Positions 1,613 through 36,267 of a stretch of 64,000 bases of DNA are shown here, one piece after another. The first letter of the stretch is position 1, and every line of letters starts with the position of its first letter. A model generated the notes under the pieces. The model was not told the origin of the DNA, ran no database searches, and was given only the letters and a program-made list of their open reading frames with translations. This stretch comes from Eubacterium sp. AM49-13BH (GTDB lineage: Bacteria > Bacillota_I > Bacilli_A > Erysipelotrichales > Erysipelotrichaceae): NCBI GenBank assembly GCA_963650865.1, contig CAVJMM010000002.1, positions 700 through 64,699 of the forward strand, given 5' to 3'. The position numbers and the translations under genes are program-made.

Positions 1613-3544
1613 ATGAAAAAAATCATTGGGGCTAGTTTGGCATTGAGCTGTTTATTAACAGGTTGTAGTACAAACATTGTATCTAGTTTGAATGAATCTA
1701 CATCTGTAACAACATCTCAAACACCAGAAGAAAAAGCAGAGGAGTTTGTAAGTACAATGGATCTACAATCAAAAATAGAACAAATGATCATGCCTGCAAT
1801 TCGTAATTGGAATGGTGAAGGATTTACACAAATGAATGACGAAGTGGAAAGCATGTTAGAAAAGTACCATTTTGGAGGCATCATCTTATTTGCGGAAAAC
1901 TTTTCTGATAATGAATCTGTTGTGAATCTCACACAAGGATTACAAATGGCAAATGCGAATGGTGGTGGCATTCCTTATATGTTGAGTATTGATCAAGAAG
2001 GTGGCTATATTACACGCTTGCAGTATGGGACAAGTACCGTAGGAAATATGGCACTTGCGGCAAGTGGTAAAACGAAAAACGCAAAAAAGAGTGCGAAGAT
2101 CATTTCTTCCGAATTAAAAGCGTTAGGTTTGAACTTGGATTTTGCGCCTAGTGTAGATGTAAATTCTAATCCCGCTAATCCAATCATTGGTGTACGTGCT
2201 TTTTCGGATGATCCAGAAATCGTAACAGAATTTTCAGAGGCGTATTTAAGTGGTTTAGCTTCTAACAATGTCATTGGAACAATCAAACATTTCCCGGGAC
2301 ATGGTGATACAGATACGGATTCTCATACAGGTTTACCAAGAATCGATCGTACAAAGGAAGAAGTGGAAAGTACAGATTTAGTTCCGTTTAAAGAATTGAT
2401 TGCGGATGGAAAAGTAGATATGGTCATGACTGCGCATATACAATTTCCACAGATTGAGACAGAGACTTATACAAGTGTGAAAGATGGTTCAACAATCAAT
2501 TTGCCTGCGACATTATCTAAGACATGGATGACGGACATTTTGAGAAATGAATCAGGATTTGATGGTGTAATTGTTACAGACTCTTTGCAGATGGATGCAA
2601 TTGCGGATAACTTTTCTACAAGAGATAGCGCAAAACTAGCGATTAATGCAGGTGTTAATATTTTATTGATGCCAGTTGAACTTGAAAATGTGGATTCAAT
2701 GAGCGCAATGGATGCATATATCCAAGACATTGTAGATATGGTTAATTCTGGTGAAATTGATGAATCATTGATTGATGAATCTTGTAAGAAAATTATTGCG
2801 TTGAAATATCAAAGAGGCATGATGGATGAAACCTATTCAGAAGAAAAAACACAACAGATGTTAACGAATGTTAATTCTTTGGTTGGAACAGAAGAATCTC
2901 ATAAAGTTGAAAGAGATATTGGAGATGACTGTATGACTGTGCTAAAGAATGAGAATGATATATTACCTTATACAGTTTCTGAAAATGAGAATATTGTAAT
3001 GATTTCTACAACAGATGTACAAAAGAATATCTTAGATCATGGATTTTCTGTATTAAAAGAAGAAGGAAGTATTGATCCTAGTTCAACAATTCAAATTGTG
3101 AATGAAAATAATGGAGAAAATCATGAAGAATGTTTACAAGCAATTGATCAAGCAAATGTATTAATTGTGACAAGTACTTTAGATTCTAGTGCACAACTAG
3201 ATACAACACAATCTGATCGGATTCGAAATGTACAAGAATATATTTCTAAAGCAAAAGAATTAGGAATCCCAGTAATTGTGATTTCTGCTAAGATTCCATA
3301 TGATGCAGCTTTATTACAAGATGCAGATGCAATTGTATGTGCGTATAATTCAAAGGGTGCAAGTAATGTAGATGATCTTTATCGTCCGCTTTCTACATAT
3401 TCTGTCAATCTCATGTGTGCAGAAGATATTATCTTTGGTTCCGCAAAACCAAAAGGAAAATTACCAGTGAATATTTCAACTGTTGAAAATGGTCAATTTA
3501 CAAGTGAAGTTCTTTATGAAAGAGGAACAGGCTTAACTTGGTAA
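1613..3544 (+). CDS. Glycoside hydrolase family 3 lipoprotein (beta-N-acetylhexosaminidase / NagZ-like)
   Basis: Lipobox LLTGCS at the N-terminus. GH3 signature KHFPGHGDTDTDSH and VVTDSLQM-type motif (VIVTDSLQMDAI). RBS GGAG upstream of the ATG. Confidence 0.85.
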   Translation: MKKIIGASLALSCLLTGCSTNIVSSLNESTSVTTSQTPEEKAEEFVSTMDLQSKIEQMIMPAIRNWNGEGFTQMNDEVESMLEKYHFGGIILFAENFSDNESVVNLTQGLQMANANGGGIPYMLSIDQEGGYITRLQYGTSTVGNMALAASGKTKNAKKSAKIISSELKALGLNLDFAPSVDVNSNPANPIIGVRAFSDDPEIVTEFSEAYLSGLASNNVIGTIKHFPGHGDTDTDSHTGLPRIDRTKEEVESTDLVPFKELIADGKVDMVMTAHIQFPQIETETYTSVKDGSTINLPATLSKTWMTDILRNESGFDGVIVTDSLQMDAIADNFSTRDSAKLAINAGVNILLMPVELENVDSMSAMDAYIQDIVDMVNSGEIDESLIDESCKKIIALKYQRGMMDETYSEEKTQQMLTNVNSLVGTEESHKVERDIGDDCMTVLKNENDILPYTVSENENIVMISTTDVQKNILDHGFSVLKEEGSIDPSSTIQIVNENNGENHEECLQAIDQANVLIVTSTLDSSAQLDTTQSDRIRNVQEYISKAKELGIPVIVISAKIPYDAALLQDADAIVCAYNSKGASNVDDLYRPLSTYSVNLMCAEDIIFGSAKPKGKLPVNISTVENGQFTSEVLYERGTGLTW

Positions 3545-9868: not shown

Positions 9869-10504
9869 ATGAATTATAGAGAATTCTTTCATTTATTAAA
9901 AACAGCTAATAACATCGAAGAGATTAAACAATATCAATCAGAAATTATTCGATTGATACCACAATATGAATCTATGATTCAATATGATCAAAACAATCAT
10001 TACCATCAATATGATTTAGATGATCATTCCTTGCATACCGTTTTAAATCTACCAAGAAATCTAGATGATGATATATTGTATCTAGCTGCTTTGATTCATG
10101 ATATTGGTAAACCAATTGCGAGATGTAAAGGAAAACATGAAGGGGATACTGAAAGTCATTATTATGGTCATCCTGAAATTAGTTATGAGATTACAAGAGA
10201 TTCTATTCTTCCATATATGTTAGAACATGGTGCATCATTAACAGAAGAAGAACAAGAACGTTTATTATATTATGTACTCCATCATGATGATCATATGTCA
10301 TTAAGAATCAAACATTTAAAAGAACATTTAAAGCTTGTTGATTTTGAAACGTTTCAGAAATTGATGTTATTAGAAGTTGCTGATGCTAGAGCACATGTAT
10401 TACTTCCAGTCATCGTGTCTAGAATTGATATTTGTTCACAATGGGCAGGAGCATATGGAAGAGAAAAATATCATGAATTATTACAAGAAAAAAGAGTCAA
10501 CTGA
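9869..10504 (+). CDS. HD domain-containing phosphohydrolase
   Basis: H...HD motif (LAALIHDIGKP) plus downstream HHDDH. AAAGGAG at 9857-9863 supports the ATG at 9869 rather than the GTG at 9854. Confidence 0.7.
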   Translation: MNYREFFHLLKTANNIEEIKQYQSEIIRLIPQYESMIQYDQNNHYHQYDLDDHSLHTVLNLPRNLDDDILYLAALIHDIGKPIARCKGKHEGDTESHYYGHPEISYEITRDSILPYMLEHGASLTEEEQERLLYYVLHHDDHMSLRIKHLKEHLKLVDFETFQKLMLLEVADARAHVLLPVIVSRIDICSQWAGAYGREKYHELLQEKRVN

Positions 10505-11018
10505 ATGACTCTTTTGCTTTGGTGTCTATATCGATATAAATATTTTGATAGTTTGTAAAATCATTTGTTTTAATAGAACGATACATATTTTTAAGTGTAT
10601 CTAATTGTAATACTTGTTTCCAATCTACTAAGTCATCTGTATTACTATATTTTTTACAGATTTCTGAGATTTGTGTTTCTAATGTATTCAATAACAAACT
10701 ATCTCGTTCTCTTTTCGCAAATGCATCCAAATATGTTTCAACAATATCATATGCTTTGATATCTTTTCCTTCTATTTTTAATACGATGGAATCGTATTGA
10801 GAACTATCTTTCCATGCGGAAGAATCAGAATATGCGACGATTTGCCAATCATAGTTTGAATAATCAGAAGATTTACGATCTTGTAAATAAGTATGTGTTG
10901 ATTTAAACACAACATCAAAACCTGTATTATCATATAGACATACATAATTAGATTCACCACATTTTTCCATCATTGCATATCCAATTGGTTTTGGTTTTCG
11001 CACTACTTTTCTTCTCAT
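10497..11018 (-). CDS. Hypothetical protein
   Basis: 173-aa ORF convergent with the HD gene. The 3' ends overlap by 8 nt. No recognisable motif. Confidence 0.4.
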   Translation of the reverse strand: MRRKVVRKPKPIGYAMMEKCGESNYVCLYDNTGFDVVFKSTHTYLQDRKSSDYSNYDWQIVAYSDSSAWKDSSQYDSIVLKIEGKDIKAYDIVETYLDAFAKRERDSLLLNTLETQISEICKKYSNTDDLVDWKQVLQLDTLKNMYRSIKTNDFTNYQNIYIDIDTKAKESFS

Positions 11019-11995: not shown

Positions 11996-12676
11996 ATGAC
12001 AAAATTGAATGAGGAATTCTTAACGATTGTTAAGAAATATGGTGTTGAAAAGAAATATCAAAAGAATGAAATGATTTATCGTACATATGATGATGCGAAT
12101 GATATTTTTGTTGTGCAAAAGGGTAGAATCAGAACATACGCAATAACCAAAGATGGTCAAGAAGTGACTTATGAAATATTAGCAAAAGGAAAGATCTTTG
12201 GAGAAACAAGTTTATTGAATCAAGGGAAAAGACCAGTATATGCAAGTGCAGTTGTAGATACGATCTTATTACAGATATCCAAGAAAGATGTAGAAGAATT
12301 AATTATGCAGTATCCTGCATTTAGTATGGCATTTATTAAAATGATTGCGGAAACGAATGTATATTTATGTGATCGTTTAAGAAATAATCAAGATTATAAT
12401 CGCTATCAAAAAGTAATTTATTTTTTGTTGGATACAACAAAAGAAGATGCAGTGGATAAAGAAATTTCACATGGTGTTTTACCATATACACATGAAGATA
12501 TCGCAAATTGTGTGCAGTTAAATAGAGTTACGGTTTCTAGAGTGTTGAATGAATTAGAAAAGAAGGGATATATTCGAATGAAGTATAAGAAGATACAAGT
12601 TTTAAAGAGAAAAGAATTAGAAGAAGAGTACTTGTCAATAACCCACGGTCCAAGGACCAGTGGGCTTGAGGTGTAA
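11996..12676 (+). CDS. Crp/Fnr family transcriptional regulator, with 3' end running into the inserted element
   Basis: cNMP-binding-like beta-barrel (GRIRTYAITKDGQEVTYEIL...IFGE) and C-terminal HTH (EDIANCVQLNRVTVSRVLNELEKKGYI). The last roughly 12 codons (..ITHGPRTSGLEV*) are read from the GC-rich left-end hairpin of the insertion. Confidence 0.8.
   Translation: MTKLNEEFLTIVKKYGVEKKYQKNEMIYRTYDDANDIFVVQKGRIRTYAITKDGQEVTYEILAKGKIFGETSLLNQGKRPVYASAVVDTILLQISKKDVEELIMQYPAFSMAFIKMIAETNVYLCDRLRNNQDYNRYQKVIYFLLDTTKEDAVDKEISHGVLPYTHEDIANCVQLNRVTVSRVLNELEKKGYIRMKYKKIQVLKRKELEEEYLSITHGPRTSGLEV
12642..12664 (+). repeat. Left-end (LE) subterminal imperfect hairpin
   Basis: CCCACGGTCCAAGGACCAGTGGG has arms CCCACGGTC / GACC(A)GTGGG with one bulged A. 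It matches 14348-14370 except at two positions that face each other at the top of the stem. Confidence 0.7.
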
Positions 12677-12975
12677 ACCTTAAGCTCGGTTGATAAGCCT
12701 CAGTGCCTGTCGACAGGCAGACACTACGTTATCCAAGAATGTCCGCTCCAGCGGACAGGGATAGGTACCAAGGGATACTTCACTAGTCCCTTGCTCTACG
12801 GTATTGCATTAAACATCTCTGAGGGTAGGAGAAGTGTGTAATACATCAAACCTTGGATAACATTGGCGAAGTGAACTACCCGCGTTATGCGGAGAAGCTA
12901 CATCTTTGAATGTAGAAGGCGTAAGCCAGTGCCGAAAGGCACACATAACTACGACAGTAGTAGAAAGGAGGCACC
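12642..12975 (+). ncRNA. Candidate IscB omegaRNA (HEARO-type structured RNA). The 5' guide is expected at or just left of this span.
   Basis: A GC-rich non-coding stretch directly upstream of iscB. It has many perfect local stems: 12704-12719, 12740-12757, 12769-12793, 12880-12892, 12898-12915, and 12929-12942 with a GAAA loop. A 10-bp long-range helix pairs 12728-12737 with 12852-12861. The ORFs here are short and lack an RBS. Confidence 0.65.
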
Positions 12976-12977
12976 AT

Positions 12978-14327
12978 ATGATGGTTGCAGTGTTGAGTTC
13001 TACAGGCATCAGATTGATGCCAATATCCTGCTACAAAGCAAGACGACTACTCAAGAAAGGGAAAGCTGAAATCGTGCAGTACAGACCTTTCACAATTAAA
13101 TTAACTCAACGAAGCACAGGAAATACTCAGCCTATTGAGTATTGCTGCGATACAGGATATCAACATATCGGAATTTCTATCAAATCTGAAAAGCATGAAT
13201 ATGTTGGAATCCAAGTGGATTCTCTCAAGGATGAGAAATCCAAACACAAGGATTGCTTAGTTTACAGACGTACTAGACGCAATCGTAAAAGATACAGAAA
13301 GCCTAGATTCAACAACCGTAAGGCTTCCAAACCAGAAGGATGGTTAGCACCAAGTATCGAGCACAAGAAAGCTATCCATCTGTATTGGATTAAGAAGTAC
13401 ATGGCAGTTATGCCTATTACAAATATTACATTTGAGATGGGTGAATTCGATACACAGTTGCTTAAGGAAATCGAGGAAGGAAAGCCAATTCCTGTTGGCA
13501 CAGATTACCAACATGGTGAACGCTACGGTATTGAAACACTTAGAAGTGCAGTATTTGCACGAGACAACTACACATGCCAGTGTTGTGGTAGTACAAAAGG
13601 ACCGTTTTGTGTACATCATGTAGTACCACGGAGTGAAGGCGGTACAAACAGAATGTCAAACCTAGCTACAGTGTGTACAGGTTGCCATACACCACCAAAT
13701 CACAAATACGGTGGTAAGTTGTGGAAGCTCAAGCAAGATTGGCATCCATTACAGTTTAAAGGTGCAACCTTTATGACTTCTGTTAGATGGCAGATGCTTG
13801 ATGCACTCAAAGAAGAGCTCCATGATGCAAGGATTCATTTGACATACGGCGCTACTACTAAAGGTGCTAGAAGAATCCTACATATGCAGAAGTCACACAT
13901 TAACGATGCGTATTGTATGGGAATGTTTCATCCAAAACATCGCACTCCACACTATCTGTACTCTAAAAAACGTAGAAACAACAGAATTCTCTCTAAGTTC
14001 TACGATGCAAAGTACATCGATAGTAGAGATGGCTCTAAAAAGTCTGGTCAGCAGTTGTTCAATGGTAGAACAAAGAGAAACCACGATTTAGATACCGAAA
14101 ACTTGCATGTATACCGGGCAAAGAAAGTATCTAAAGGTAGAACTTCTGTTAGAAAGAAACACTATCCAATACAACCAGGTGACTGTTTGTATGCAAATGG
14201 TAAATATGTAATCACCAATGGTTGCCATAATAATGGCACCAGGGTCTTATGCAATGGCAAATCCATTGCAGTCAAAAATGTATGCTTGCACAAATATGCA
14301 GGAGGATATACATATGTCAAATTATAA
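12978..14327 (+). CDS. iscB: IscB RNA-guided endonuclease (PLMP, split RuvC, bridge helix, HNH, C-terminal TAM-interacting-like domain), 449 aa
   Basis: AAAGGAGG at 12964-12971 precedes the ATG at 12978. RLMP at residues 12-15. RuvC-I CCDTGYQHIGISI (D58). Arg-rich YRRTRRNRKRYRKPRFNNRK. RuvC-II ITFEMGEFD (E153). HNH CQCCGS..VHHVVPRSEGGTNRMSNLATVCTGCH. RuvC-III KSHINDAYCM (H307, D310). Confidence 0.9.
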   Translation: MMVAVLSSTGIRLMPISCYKARRLLKKGKAEIVQYRPFTIKLTQRSTGNTQPIEYCCDTGYQHIGISIKSEKHEYVGIQVDSLKDEKSKHKDCLVYRRTRRNRKRYRKPRFNNRKASKPEGWLAPSIEHKKAIHLYWIKKYMAVMPITNITFEMGEFDTQLLKEIEEGKPIPVGTDYQHGERYGIETLRSAVFARDNYTCQCCGSTKGPFCVHHVVPRSEGGTNRMSNLATVCTGCHTPPNHKYGGKLWKLKQDWHPLQFKGATFMTSVRWQMLDALKEELHDARIHLTYGATTKGARRILHMQKSHINDAYCMGMFHPKHRTPHYLYSKKRRNNRILSKFYDAKYIDSRDGSKKSGQQLFNGRTKRNHDLDTENLHVYRAKKVSKGRTSVRKKHYPIQPGDCLYANGKYVITNGCHNNGTRVLCNGKSIAVKNVCLHKYAGGYTYVKL

Positions 14328-14347
14328 GAAAGGAGACGGCGTTTCCT

Positions 14348-14370
14348 CCCACGGTCTAAAGACCAGTGGG
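14348..14370 (+). repeat. Right-end (RE) subterminal imperfect hairpin
   Basis: CCCACGGTCTAAAGACCAGTGGG lies 21 nt after the iscB stop. It has the same arms and bulged A as the LE hairpin. C/G in LE is replaced by T/A at the two facing positions. Confidence 0.7.
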
Positions 14371-14397
14371 TTTCCACGCCGAAAGTTTTATGAAAAA

Positions 14398-14417
14398 ATG
14401 GGAACCTGAGTTCCCAT
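14398..14417. terminator. Hairpin terminator at the 3' end of the convergent alpha-galactosidase gene
   Basis: ATGGGAAC-CTGA-GTTCCCAT is a perfect 8-bp stem preceded by AAAAAA on the + strand. It overlaps the stop of the minus-strand gene at 14417-14419. Confidence 0.55.
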
Positions 14418-15988
14418 TAGAGGATGCTTGTATCACAAGTGTATGTATTTGTTTTGCCATCTAGATCATACTGGATAGTGAGTATTTTATCATACATGTT
14501 TGTATGAATATTTGTAGCCGTTGATAAATGACGATAGTGATGGTATTTGTCAATTTGATCAGATGTATAGTTAGATGGATTATCACTTGTTAAGAATACA
14601 CCACCTAATAATGCATCGATCGTAATTAACATTTCTTTTTGTTGTTCTGTTAATTTTAGGTTTTCATCTCTTAAGAAAAATACATCAGGATCAGATAGAT
14701 AAGCTCTTGTATTGATCTGTCTTCTGAAGATTGTATTAGCTAAAGAGTGTTTTGTGGATACGCGTTCTCTATGAAATAAACGCATATACCAAACATCATT
14801 CCAATCTAGTCCTACATCACATCCTACACGATTGTATTCGAAGATACCAAGTGTTGAACAAAATGGAACACCGCAACCTAATATTGGATGATCTTTACAG
14901 AGCTCTTTTAAGAATAGAATTGCCCGTTTCATTTTATGTGCTCTTGATTCGGATTCAGTTCCAAATGGAGCTGCAGCGTATAAGAAATCTAATTTCACAA
15001 GATCAAAATTCCATTCATTAAAGATTTGATCAAAAACATCTTTTAGATATTGGATTACTTCAGGATGATCAATATCTAATGCATAGGCACCATCCCAATT
15101 ACATCCAACAAACCATGGTTCCCCATTAACTTTTAATAACCAATCTGGATGTTCTTTTACAAGTTTGGAATGAACAGACGCAAGAAATGGTGAAACCCAA
15201 ATACCTGCTTTGAAATGTGCTTGATGAATTCGATCCGTTTCATAGCGTAATCCATGAGGAAACTTAGCAGAATCATATTCTAACCAATCCCCCGTGCATG
15301 GTTGCCATCCATCATCGATTTGGAATAAATCATTTTCTTGAAGAATGATTTTACATCCTTCTAAATCTTCTTGGATTGTATCTGTGGATATATTTTCATA
15401 ATGGTTATACCAACTTGAATATCCATATAACTTAGGTCGTGTTTGTTTTGGAATGTTCATTGCGTTGAACCATCCATCAAATACTTCTTGTTCACTGCCA
15501 ATTTGTTCATAAATATCAAAGATTGTATATGTTCCATCAAACGTTACACCTTCACAGTCTTTTTCAATTGTGAGTGTATTATTTTTATAGTTGAAGATTG
15601 TATATCCTAGATCTTCATTGATGGATGCAAGTAAATGATATTTGTTACCTTTTCGAAGATACATGTATGTATATCCATGAAAGATTCCTTTGTGTTTTGG
15701 ATATGCATGAAAATGATAGTCACCATATCGATCAAAATGATATTGATCAATTAATTTTTGAGGGACATGTTGTAGACCTCTGAAAGAATCAGATATTTTC
15801 ATTTCTTTATTGTATGTCCATGTTTGATAACCATTGAAGAATAGATAATCTGTAGTAGAAACTTCTAATGAAGTGGTAGCTTTGATAGATTGAATTGTTC
15901 CGTGGATTTCTTCTGTGATATTTTGAAGCGTATCAGTTGTATATTCAATTGTTTGTATATCTGTTTGAATTTGTATTTTCCAAGTCAT
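14417..15988 (-). CDS. Alpha-galactosidase-like glycoside hydrolase (GH36/melibiase family)
   Basis: FQIDDGWQ motif and KLDF nucleophile-region motif typical of the melibiase fold. The gene sits in an operon with a GPH sugar symporter. Confidence 0.7.
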   Translation of the reverse strand: MTWKIQIQTDIQTIEYTTDTLQNITEEIHGTIQSIKATTSLEVSTTDYLFFNGYQTWTYNKEMKISDSFRGLQHVPQKLIDQYHFDRYGDYHFHAYPKHKGIFHGYTYMYLRKGNKYHLLASINEDLGYTIFNYKNNTLTIEKDCEGVTFDGTYTIFDIYEQIGSEQEVFDGWFNAMNIPKQTRPKLYGYSSWYNHYENISTDTIQEDLEGCKIILQENDLFQIDDGWQPCTGDWLEYDSAKFPHGLRYETDRIHQAHFKAGIWVSPFLASVHSKLVKEHPDWLLKVNGEPWFVGCNWDGAYALDIDHPEVIQYLKDVFDQIFNEWNFDLVKLDFLYAAAPFGTESESRAHKMKRAILFLKELCKDHPILGCGVPFCSTLGIFEYNRVGCDVGLDWNDVWYMRLFHRERVSTKHSLANTIFRRQINTRAYLSDPDVFFLRDENLKLTEQQKEMLITIDALLGGVFLTSDNPSNYTSDQIDKYHHYRHLSTATNIHTNMYDKILTIQYDLDGKTNTYTCDTSIL

Positions 15989-36095: not shown

Positions 36096-36168
36096 TGGAG
36101 CTAAGGGGAATCGAACCCCTGACCCCCTGCTTGCAAAGCAGGTGCTCTCCCAGCTGAGCTATAACCCC
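36096..36168 (-). tRNA. tRNA-Ala (anticodon UGC), CCA not encoded
   Basis: The reverse complement reads GGGGTTATAGCTCAGCTGGGAGAGCACCTGCTTTGCAAGCAGGGGGTCAGGGGTTCGATTCCCCTTAGCTCCA. It has a G3:U70 pair, anticodon loop TTTGCAA and T-loop GGTTCGATTCC. Confidence 0.92.
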
Positions 36169-36190
36169 AGGATACATTTTTGAGAATAAA

Positions 36191-36267
<77 letters not shown>

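Follow-up and report, generated by a model that had tools for sequence, protein, structure and literature searches.

The structured region that begins at position 12634 of the window (the whole stretch of DNA that was analysed, 64,000 nt) is almost certainly the scaffold of an IscB omega RNA (HEARO), located at the iscB-proximal end of a 1756-bp non-autonomous element of the IS200/IS605 type. The Rfam covariance model HEARO (RF02033, gathering score 83) matched positions 12634 to 12881 on the plus strand along the entire model (positions 1-211 of 211), with 126.4 bits and E = 8.7e-26. The match ends at 12881, upstream of an iscB gene that starts at 12978 on the same strand, and HEARO is also found 5' of iscB in the relatives L001, L002 and L004. 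The region is read as an omega RNA because its position, its strand, the transposon-end boundary and the flanking motif match the published biology (Meers et al., bioRxiv 10.1101/2023.03.14.532601; PMC9640706). The locus is a known kind of element and an ordinary HEARO/omega RNA example, which fits published IscB/omega RNA biology. The features of the locus are listed in Table 1.

An earlier note, made from the letters of this DNA, had described about 330 nt of non-coding sequence upstream of iscB as a candidate omegaRNA/HEARO scaffold. The 126.4-bit score, above the gathering score of 83, with IscB encoded directly downstream, confirms this identity, and the covariance-model search which the note had suggested as a check returned a full-length match. 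The region is also GC-rich and densely structured, as the note had claimed: its G+C content is 0.43-0.47, versus about 0.30 in the flanks, and the minimum free energy (MFE) of 12614-12990 is -137.9 kcal/mol, compared with -102.4 +/- 6.3 kcal/mol for shuffled sequences (z = -5.66, 0 of 100 shuffles as stable). The span indeed ends at the iscB Shine-Dalgarno. Its start had been placed at 12642, whereas the structured element starts 8 nt earlier. As for its non-coding character, the three ORFs dismissed in the note exist as described, but the crp-like ORF enters the span by 43 nt.

Table 1. Features of the omega RNA, iscB and the surrounding insertion sequence (positions in the window).
Feature	Position	Strand	Description
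Upstream crp/fnr-family regulator gene	11996-12676	+	Pfam cNMP_binding and HTH_Crp_2
Predicted guide segment TAGAAGAAGAGTACTT	12618-12633	+	Encoded by the final crp-like codons, outside the element; 16-nt length assumed by analogy
Whole insertion sequence	12634-14389	+	1756 bp; omega RNA and iscB, without tnpA and without target duplication
5' domain, guide-adaptor position	12634-12694	+	Closing stem 12634-12639/12689-12694 around hairpins 12643-12663 and 12664-12685 (GUAA loop); Rfam alignment and MFE fold
Omega RNA hairpin 1	12642-12664	+	Also the subterminal hairpin of the iscB-side transposon end ('RE', TnpA convention)
Nexus stem, 5' strand GCC	12697-12699	+	Partner GGC 12865-12867; Rfam structure
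Stem-loop	12702-12725	+	Tip is hairpin 12704-12719 of the earlier note; in Rfam a 5-bp stem with a lineage-specific insertion
Central stem	12728-12737 with 12852-12861	+	Around three hairpins; Rfam structure
Extra hairpin UGUCCGC-UCCA-GCGGACA	12740-12757	+	Lineage-specific; insertion relative to the Rfam model
Pseudoknot hairpin	12765-12799	+	Inner stem 12769-12776/12786-12793, the CAAGGGA...TCCCTTG of the earlier note
Pseudoknot	12779-12783 with 12871-12875	+	UUCAC (hairpin loop) with GUGAA
Large stem-loop	12801-12844	+	Rfam structure; absent from the earlier note
Conserved tail UUGGCGAAGUGAACUAC	12863-12879	+	Single-stranded and paired; nexus 3' strand, pseudoknot 3' strand, linker
Hairpin CCGCG-UUA-UGCGG	12880-12892	+	3' of the Rfam-matched region; innermost pair G.U
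Terminal hairpin CUACAU-N6-AUGUAG	12898-12915	+	
Mini-hairpin GGC-GUAA-GCC	12918-12927	+	Conserved; absent from the earlier note
Optional hairpin GUGCC-GAAA-GGCAC	12929-12942	+	Lineage-specific
Hairpin ACUAC-GACA-GUAGU	12948-12961	+	Closest relatives only; lineage-specific
iscB Shine-Dalgarno AGGAGG	12966-12971	+	6 nt 5' of ATG 12978; kept in relatives
iscB	12978-14327	+	449 aa, apparently intact
Subterminal hairpin, iscB-distal end	14348-14370	+	'LE', TnpA convention; 19 nt from the boundary
Target/transposon-adjacent motif ATGAA	14390-14394	+	TTCAT on the minus strand; just outside the element

A protein-profile scan of metagenome contigs yielded 80 related loci. To test the core helices, 23 relatives were aligned with MAFFT, blind to structure. 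In the core, 95.0% of cells were paired, versus 78% with shuffled partners and 32-47% with slid partners; both-sided changes occurred in 27 of 48 pairs, and 0 of 500 shuffles reached any of the five measures. These compensatory changes in relatives support the helices and supply the covariation across homologues that the note had named as a further check. All seven helices which it had listed (12704-12719, 12740-12757, 12769-12793, 12880-12892, 12898-12915, 12929-12942 and 12728-12737/12852-12861) lie where it had placed them. The first of them, however, competes with the longer stem-loop 12702-12725 and is best seen as its tip, while 12740-12757 and 12929-12942, although present, are lineage-specific additions and not part of the conserved core. 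The 5' three-way junction, the pseudoknot, the stem-loop 12801-12844 and the mini-hairpin 12918-12927 go beyond what had been noticed before.

Within the 5' domain, the closing stem is 98.7% paired in relatives, and the three-way junction folds in 12 of 13 relatives despite their differing interiors. The nexus stem is fully paired (100%) in 13 relatives, one of which, a divergent one, carries two both-sided changes. At the base of the stem-loop 12702-12725, AGUG/CACU is 92% paired and three of four pairs have changed on both sides; the same is true of 6/10 pairs in the central stem (23 relatives). The outer helix of the large stem-loop 12801-12844 is 98.1% paired (both-sided changes in 7/9 pairs), and the inner stem of the pseudoknot hairpin 98.9% (7/8 pairs). 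The pseudoknot itself is 97.4% paired. Its loop and tail occur in four versions among relatives (UUCAC/GUGAA, UCCUC/GAGGA, UCCAC/GUGGA and UUCUU/GAGAA), and two of its columns are split CG:13/UA:9 and AU:11/UA:11. The equivalent pseudoknot is essential in OgeuIscB (PMC9640706). The tail at 12863-12879 is nearly invariant among relatives except for these covarying positions.

The structure continues 3' of the Rfam-matched region. The hairpin 12880-12892 shows both-sided changes in all four tested pairs (CCGC/GCGG, CCAC/GUGG, CCUC/GAGG), and 81% of its cells are paired even in the structure-blind alignment. The terminal hairpin 12898-12915 is 89% paired, with both-sided changes in 5/6 pairs (25 relatives). 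The mini-hairpin 12918-12927 is present in nearly all of 61 relatives and is 100% paired, all three pairs having changed on both sides (e.g. GGU/ACC, AAC/GUU, UGC/GCA); in position and size it resembles terminal hairpin 2 (10 nt) of the OgeuIscB RNA (PMC9640706), to which it may correspond. The remaining elements are more variable. The hairpin 12740-12757, inside the core, is found only in the window, in L001 and, partly, in L077. When each relative was folded separately, a hairpin of differing sequence appeared at the 12929-12942 site in 17 of 25 relatives and none in the rest; in the structure-blind alignment, which is out of register there, this site is 42% paired. The hairpin 12948-12961 shows one compensatory change, in L010 (CAC/GUG). 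It is conceivable, if decidedly improbable, that the extra ~100 nt (12740-12757, 12880-12892 at the 'linker', 12929-12942 and 12948-12961) form a functional module undescribed in characterised systems, possibly setting the 3' processing site or coupling omega RNA maturation to iscB translation and, separately, that the insertion at a stop codon would tie guide-RNA supply to transcription of the Crp/Fnr regulator.

The boundaries of the insertion sequence were defined by an empty-site allele on a conspecific contig (L091). It reads ...GAAGAGTTCTT followed immediately by ATGAAAAAATGGGAACC, i.e. 12555-12633 joined directly to 14390-14500. A 2-nt TT ambiguity at this junction was settled by other copies: four independent copies share homology from GTCAA (12634) up to the base before ATGAA. 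The boundary 12633/12634, given by L091 and the four copies, thus coincides with the first base of the HEARO match. The 23-nt sequence CCCACGGTCCAAGGACCAGTGGG at 12642-12664 is repeated as CCCACGGTCTAAAGACCAGTGGG at 14348-14370. No third match exists in the 64 kb (0 expected by chance), and the iscB-side hairpin lies 8 nt from the element boundary. As in IS200/IS605 elements, subterminal hairpins are found at both ends, terminal inverted repeats and target-site duplication are absent, and a specific short insertion motif is used. The Y1 (HUH) TnpA of this family was not detected: the element has a single long ORF, which is iscB, and none of the 10 small window ORFs tested matched Y1_Tnp. Being without tnpA, the element is non-autonomous, as are ~98.5% of iscB loci (Meers et al., bioRxiv 10.1101/2023.03.14.532601). 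No further copies of the end hairpin were found in the window, where the element is the single visible copy, and its mobility, hence its homing role, may be lost in this genome.

The iscB product has Pfam matches to RRXRR (residues 3-179, 3.5e-45) and HNH (residues 200-238), and it matches PDB IscB chains, including OgeuIscB 7xht/7utn, with E ~1e-29 to 5e-31. The PLMP region, RuvC I-III with the bridge helix, the inserted HNH and the catalytic residues of IscB are all present. Columns invariant across relatives hold RLMP 12-15 (the LMP of the PLMP motif), D58, E153, the HNH residues C200/C203 (CxxC), H213/H214, N228 and C233/C236 (CxxC), and also H307 and D310.

In such an RNA the guide comes from the flank directly 5' of the scaffold, beyond the transposon end (Meers et al., bioRxiv 10.1101/2023.03.14.532601), and guides of 16-17 nt are in use (Kato et al., PMC9640706). 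Here the segment TAGAAGAAGAGTACTT, unique in the window, lies directly 5' of the scaffold and of the transposon boundary; both its length of 16 nt and the exact 3' end of the RNA are adopted from the literature and are thus provisional. On the other side of the element lies ATGAA, whose TGA originally terminated the crp-like gene; among 14 related elements, 11 are directly followed by this motif. For GstIscB, experiments identified TTCAT as the TAM (Meers et al., bioRxiv 10.1101/2023.03.14.532601), and by this identity ATGAA is predicted to be the TAM of the window's IscB. The excised (donor-joint) site would carry the guide match, then ATGAAA, which also fits the OgeuIscB NWRRNA motif (PMC12660989). 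Inside the element the guide is followed by GTCAA, which differs from ATGAA at two positions. Such a two-position mismatch has been described as protecting the donor copy (Meers et al., bioRxiv 10.1101/2023.03.14.532601).

Uninterrupted homologues of the crp-like gene encode 213 aa and end in ...EEFL or ...EEYL; in the window, its last 13 codons and stop are now IS-encoded. The gene is on the same strand as the omega RNA, in agreement with the orientation bias reported by Meers et al. (bioRxiv 10.1101/2023.03.14.532601). A promoter scan for the omega RNA gave 6 sites versus 9.2 expected by chance, so that an internal promoter is unsupported. The crp/fnr-like gene is the likely source of the guide-supplying transcript. 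A weak promoter match at 12545-12574 (+) was given no weight.

The scaffold was then compared with known systems. It shares with HEARO RF02033 the 5' closing stem, the nexus and central stems, the pseudoknot hairpin and the GGCGA-G-GAAC tail. The consensus pseudoknot UUCGC/GCGAA is replaced here by UUCAC/GUGAA through compensatory changes. Unlike the model, the window has two lineage-specific insertions (the tip of 12702-12725 and the hairpin 12740-12757) and ~95 nt of added hairpins 3' of the matched region; that RF02033 lacks the downstream elements was noted already by Meers et al. (bioRxiv 10.1101/2023.03.14.532601). The scaffold is also ~100 nt longer than the 242-nt average given in that study (Meers et al., bioRxiv 10.1101/2023.03.14.532601).

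The OgeuIscB protein (7xht, 7utn; Kato et al. 2022, PMC9640706) aligns with the present one across the PLMP, RuvC and HNH regions with E ~1e-29. Its RNA likewise has a guide-adjacent hairpin domain, nexus and central stems, a loop-to-post-nexus pseudoknot, a linker and terminal hairpins including a 10-nt one, and the flanking ATGAAA fits its NWRRNA/NNRR motif. However, the scaffold reaches up to 344 nt here versus 206 nt in OgeuIscB, and the guide-adjacent domain is a three-way junction instead of a single 14-bp hairpin. The hairpin 12880-12892 stands where OgeuIscB has a single-stranded linker, and the peripheral stem-loops seem to be arranged around the central stem in another order than in the published description. 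Helices were mapped to OgeuIscB helix names by position only; a literature text search for GCGTAAGCC gave no match.

The element of GstIscB (ISGst family, Geobacillus stearothermophilus; bioRxiv 10.1101/2023.03.14.532601) is similarly a non-autonomous IS605-type element, with the scaffold derived from the iscB-side transposon end and the guide outside the element. It also shares the flanking TTCAT, an in-element motif two positions off the TAM, an upstream host gene in the same orientation and the catalytic residue number D58. It differs in that the window comes from another host lineage (a low-G+C gut Firmicute, judged by relatives), has a single visible copy, lacks a cognate tnpA among the 10 tested window ORFs and is known from its sequence alone.

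By analogy with the published systems, from which transcription and processing of the RNA, its binding by IscB and cleavage are all taken, the locus could work as follows. Transcription from the same-strand crp/fnr-like gene would produce an RNA with a host-derived 5' guide (~12618-12633), and the next ~295-345 nt would fold into the multi-helix, pseudoknotted scaffold bound by IscB. If a TnpA acting in trans excised the element, the rejoined site would consist of the guide match and ATGAA. By means of the guide and the ATGAA motif, the IscB-omega RNA complex would recognise and cut this site, after which the element would be restored through recombination with a sister copy.

The conserved structure might instead act mainly as DNA, the single-stranded transposon end offering a subterminal hairpin and a cleavage motif to TnpA. 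The repetition of the 23-nt hairpin 12642-12664 at 14348-14370 would suit such a role, as would the lack of target duplication and the boundary-hairpin distances of 8 and 19 nt, which resemble those of IS200/IS605 ends (10 and 19 nt in IS608). A TnpA end, though, needs a few dozen nucleotides, whereas covarying helices and a pseudoknot reach ~300 nt inward and match an RNA covariance model, so that a mainly DNA-level function is very improbable. The two roles are not in competition but overlap, since it is the transposon end that gave rise to the scaffold (Meers et al., bioRxiv 10.1101/2023.03.14.532601). Still harder to credit is a role without guide function, in which the region, as a cis-acting 5' leader, would control the translation of iscB or the stability of its mRNA. 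The structure does extend to the Shine-Dalgarno, the conserved core is separated from the ribosome-binding site by the hairpins 12929-12942 and 12948-12961, and the MFE fold pairs GCCUC 12697-12701 with GAGGC 12968-12972, overlapping the Shine-Dalgarno. This anti-Shine-Dalgarno pairing is not conserved, since its position varies in relatives (GCCUC, GCCUA, GCCUU, GCCGG). The core, moreover, matches a family with experimentally shown guide RNAs (PMC9640706; Meers et al., bioRxiv 10.1101/2023.03.14.532601), and a leader would predict neither a scaffold that starts at the transposon end nor a TAM-like motif at the other end.

It is also unlikely, though worth some weight, that a locus which is a genuine omega RNA/IscB system by descent is now a stranded, inert relic in this genome. 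Only one copy is present, neither the element nor the tested ORFs include a tnpA, and decay does occur in the lineage, as L004 shows, which retains the RNA and both ends but is missing ~0.9 kb of iscB. In the window, by contrast, the ORF has its full length of 449 aa and every conserved catalytic residue, the RNA scores well over threshold and its helices are intact. The near-identical strain L091 lacks the element, which points to a recent insertion or excision.

With the omega RNA reading preferred, the significance of the locus lies mainly in annotation, and nothing conceptually new is added for OMEGA systems. The appropriate label for the region is IscB omega RNA (HEARO) in an IS200/IS605-type element, not unexplained intergenic sequence, and the 13-codon IS-derived tail should be flagged in the annotation of the crp/fnr-like gene. 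Given its exact boundary, predicted 16-nt guide, ATGAA motif and empty-site allele, the locus could serve as a natural test case, and it could add to the set of compact IscB candidates.

Metagenome contigs gave no match when scanned for the exact pattern TAACNTTGGCGAAGTGAACNACCC, and a protein scan of viral contigs revealed no relatives. The DNA tail motif matches two viral contigs, L007 and L008.

The span directly upstream of iscB (12642-12975) had been described in an earlier note as a densely structured, GC-rich candidate omega RNA. Every helix listed there was found at its coordinates, and the three overlapping ORFs that had been set aside (12809-13009 minus, 12887-13069 plus and a TTG-started extension from 12906) are present in a mechanical ORF list. 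The G+C content rises to 0.43-0.47 in the span, compared with about 0.30 on either side. The MFE of 12614-12990 as RNA was -137.9 kcal/mol, well below the -102.4 +/- 6.3 kcal/mol of dinucleotide shuffles (z = -5.66; 0 of 100 shuffles equal), and the structure first noticed is real and far beyond chance. In an Rfam scan of the whole window, HEARO (RF02033) was the sole non-tRNA match, at 12634-12881 (+), with 126.4 bits (gathering score 83), E = 8.7e-26 and model positions 1-211 of 211, not truncated. This search, which the note had proposed, supports the omega RNA identity, while the boundaries were corrected and the list of helices was extended. The locus is a textbook HEARO/omega RNA-IscB locus, a kind already known, and its sole departure from published descriptions is a set of lineage-specific extra hairpins.

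Helices of the omega RNA scaffold and their relation to the HEARO model
Feature	Position	Strand	Source
Central stem of HEARO model; the 10-bp long-range helix of the earlier note	12728-12737 with 12852-12861	+	
8-bp hairpin of HEARO model; CAAGGGA...TCCCTTG of the earlier note	12769-12793	+	
Lineage-specific extension of the 5-bp model stem-loop (12702-12725)	12704-12719	+	
Hairpin inserted relative to HEARO model	12740-12757	+	
Closing stem around two hairpins; not listed earlier	12634-12639 with 12689-12694	+	Rfam model
3-bp stem around the remainder; not listed earlier	12697-12699 with 12865-12867	+	Rfam model
Large stem-loop; not listed earlier	12801-12844	+	Rfam model

For covariation, the helices of the window were projected onto structure-blind MAFFT alignments. 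In the core alignment (12724-12878, 23 sequences below 94% identity), 95.0% of cells were standard pairs, versus 77.9% with shuffled partners and 32-47% with partners slid by 1-3 columns. Both sides had changed in 27 of 48 pairs, including 6/10 in the central stem, 7/8 in the pseudoknot hairpin and 7/9 in the large stem-loop, and 0 of 500 shuffles reached any of five measures. Covariation, which the note had suggested testing, supports the core helices. In the full-length alignment (13 sequences), the 5' closing stem was 98.7% paired and the 3-bp enclosing stem 100%, and three of the four pairs at the base of stem-loop 12702-12725 showed both-sided changes. Because the interior of the 5' domain is too variable to align, relatives were folded one by one, and the same three-way junction was obtained in 12 of 13.

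Within hairpin 12769-12793, the loop bases UUCAC (12779-12783) are the complement of GUGAA (12871-12875), which is part of the conserved tail GGCGAAGUGAAC; the corresponding segments of the Rfam consensus are UUCGC and GCGAA. The two strands co-vary in relatives (UUCAC/GUGAA, UCCUC/GAGGA, UCCAC/GUGGA, UUCUU/GAGAA) and are 97.4% paired, with two columns divided roughly evenly between two pair types. The equivalent of this pseudoknot in the OgeuIscB omega RNA is the nexus pseudoknot, disruption of which abolished activity (Kato et al., PMC9640706).

RF02033 does not include the downstream structural elements (Meers et al., 10.1101/2023.03.14.532601), which here fall in 12882-12977. Among 25 relatives, hairpin 12880-12892 had both-sided changes in 4/4 tested pairs, and hairpin 12898-12915 was 89% paired with such changes in 5/6. 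The mini-hairpin GGC-GUAA-GCC (12918-12927), absent from the earlier list and recognisable in nearly all of 61 distinct upstream regions, was 100% paired and changed on both sides in 3/3. By position and size, the latter two resemble, and may match, terminal hairpins 1 and 2 of the OgeuIscB RNA (20 nt and 10 nt; PMC9640706). A hairpin of another sequence stands in place of 12929-12942 in 17 of the 25 relatives, and none in the others; hairpin 12948-12961 is confined to the closest relatives. Since neither is general, the conserved scaffold probably ends near 12927, and the stretch from there to the Shine-Dalgarno is a variable extension. A scan found no terminator-like site 3' of the scaffold on the + strand, and omega RNA and iscB mRNA are therefore probably co-transcribed. 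The conserved omega RNA tail TAACATTGGCGAAGTGAAC is also carried by two viral contigs (IMG/VR), L007 (230-300) and L008 (5241-5400); in L007 an IscB-like start (...PLMP) lies only ~45 nt after it, so the 3' region is much shorter.

Similarity among four independent copies of the element begins exactly at GTCAA (12634), with unrelated sequence upstream, and ends just before ATGAA. When the crp-like protein was trimmed to its predicted native end, a protein search gave a 213-aa homologue, 99% identical, encoded on contig L091 of another strain. The uninterrupted allele of L091 reads ...GAATTGGAAGAAGAGTTCTT|ATGAAAAAATGGGAACCTGAGTTCCC..., in which window 12555-12633 runs straight into 14390 and beyond; a TT ambiguity at the junction was settled by the other copies. 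From both comparisons, the element is 12634-14389 (1756 bp), and target duplication is absent. Near-identical 23-nt hairpins, the sole two matches in 64 kb, lie 8 nt (12642-12664) and 19 nt (14348-14370) from its boundaries. The element encodes no tnpA and is therefore non-autonomous, as are most iscB elements (Meers et al.); nor did a search of 10 small ORFs in the window find one.

The insertion split the native end of the crp-like gene (...TAC TTA TGA), extending the ORF by 13 IS-encoded codons to TAA 12674-12676. This crp/fnr-family regulator (11996-12676 (+)), 213 aa in uninterrupted homologues, has lost its native stop and ends in the IS-encoded residues SITHGPRTSGLEV, and an omega RNA hairpin has the new TAA in its GUAA loop. 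On the other side, a convergent gene of melibiase/GH-like type (14417-15988, minus strand) has a terminator-like hairpin and T-run at 14397-14418 (-). This T-run ends in the insertion motif TTCAT; the insertion thus fell between two convergent genes, and the terminator was not disrupted.

The correct start codon of iscB is ATG 12978, with AGGAGG lying six nt before it, and relatives start with MMVAVL at the equivalent place. The 449-aa product matched Pfam RRXRR (3.5e-45) and HNH (3.5e-09), as well as solved IscB chains, OgeuIscB 7xht/7utn included, at 5e-31 to 7e-29. Across alignments that include relatives as low as 60% identity, invariant columns hold the LMP of the PLMP motif, D58, E153, the cysteines and histidines of the HNH domain (C200, C203, H213, H214, C233, C236), H307 and D310; GstIscB was inactivated by mutating the counterparts of D58 and the HH pair (Meers et al., 10.1101/2023.03.14.532601). 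Judged by its sequence, the product is an intact IscB with the catalytic residues present. Its HNH domain has three residues fewer between the first CxxC and HH (window 13575-13600, residues ~205-210) than that of more distant relatives, a gap shared with its closest relative, P0002. A genome scan gave six related loci, and the upstream region, present in three (contigs L001, L002 and L004), scored above the HEARO threshold in all three. A protein search returned thousands of homologues, and a profile scan of metagenome contigs added 80 further loci (49-65% protein identity). The L004 element (2660-3509) has kept HEARO (155 bits) and both ends; ~0.9 kb is gone from mid-iscB, and it is therefore a decayed derivative.

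From the boundary, empty-allele and end data, the guide is predicted at ~12618-12633, TAGAAGAAGAGTACTT, a sequence unique in the window. Once the site is rejoined, ATGAAA would come after the guide match. Of 14 related elements, 11 have ATGAA after them. Read on the opposite strand, this is TTCAT, which experiments identified as the motif of GstIscB and of its TnpA (Meers et al.); ATGAAA also agrees with NWRRNA, the motif given for OgeuIscB (PMC12660989). In the occupied state, GTCAA comes after the guide; it is unlike ATGAA at two positions, in agreement with the internal motif two positions off, sparing the donor copy, that was described by Meers et al. The L091 empty-site allele (3120-3150) has two mismatches to the predicted guide (window 12618-12633), with TTGGAAGAAGAGTTCTT in place of TTAGAAGAAGAGTACTT. 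As one of these lies 4 nt from the motif, that allele might escape cutting by this omega RNA. Downstream of iscB in close relatives L009 and L010, TTAAA replaces ATGAA at the iscB-distal end, which suggests that the target motif switched within the lineage.

The crp/fnr-like gene shares its strand with the omega RNA, in line with the orientation bias reported by Meers et al. and with the need for a transcription start outside the element; a promoter scan gave nothing above chance. The present analysis established the RNA and protein families, the helices, the pseudoknot, the exact boundary, the flank, the flanking motif and the intact catalytic residues. By analogy with homologues described in the literature, a transcript reading through from the crp-like gene would be processed to an RNA with a guide of ~16-17 nt, which would bind IscB; the empty site would be cleaved after TnpA-mediated excision and the element restored through recombination.

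A structure serving purely at the DNA level, as a transposase end, would explain only part of the span, since such a role accounts for the first few dozen nucleotides only. A cis-regulatory leader of iscB is suggested by the MFE fold, in which GCCUC (12697-12701) pairs with GAGGC (12968-12972), overlapping the iscB Shine-Dalgarno; however, this pairing is not conserved in relatives and is therefore probably fortuitous. The locus may also be inert in this genome, where it is single-copy with no tnpA seen, and the iscB of the relative L004 is internally deleted. Against this, the ORF is intact and a nearly identical strain has an empty allele, both of which speak for recent activity.

Elsewhere in the window, two adjacent tRNA genes lie at 36096-36267 (-) (Rfam tRNA, 68.9 and 66.8 bits). 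Beside a gene for a YitT-family membrane protein lies a 173-aa ORF (10497-11018 (-)) without a Pfam match, which is also present in the L091 strain.
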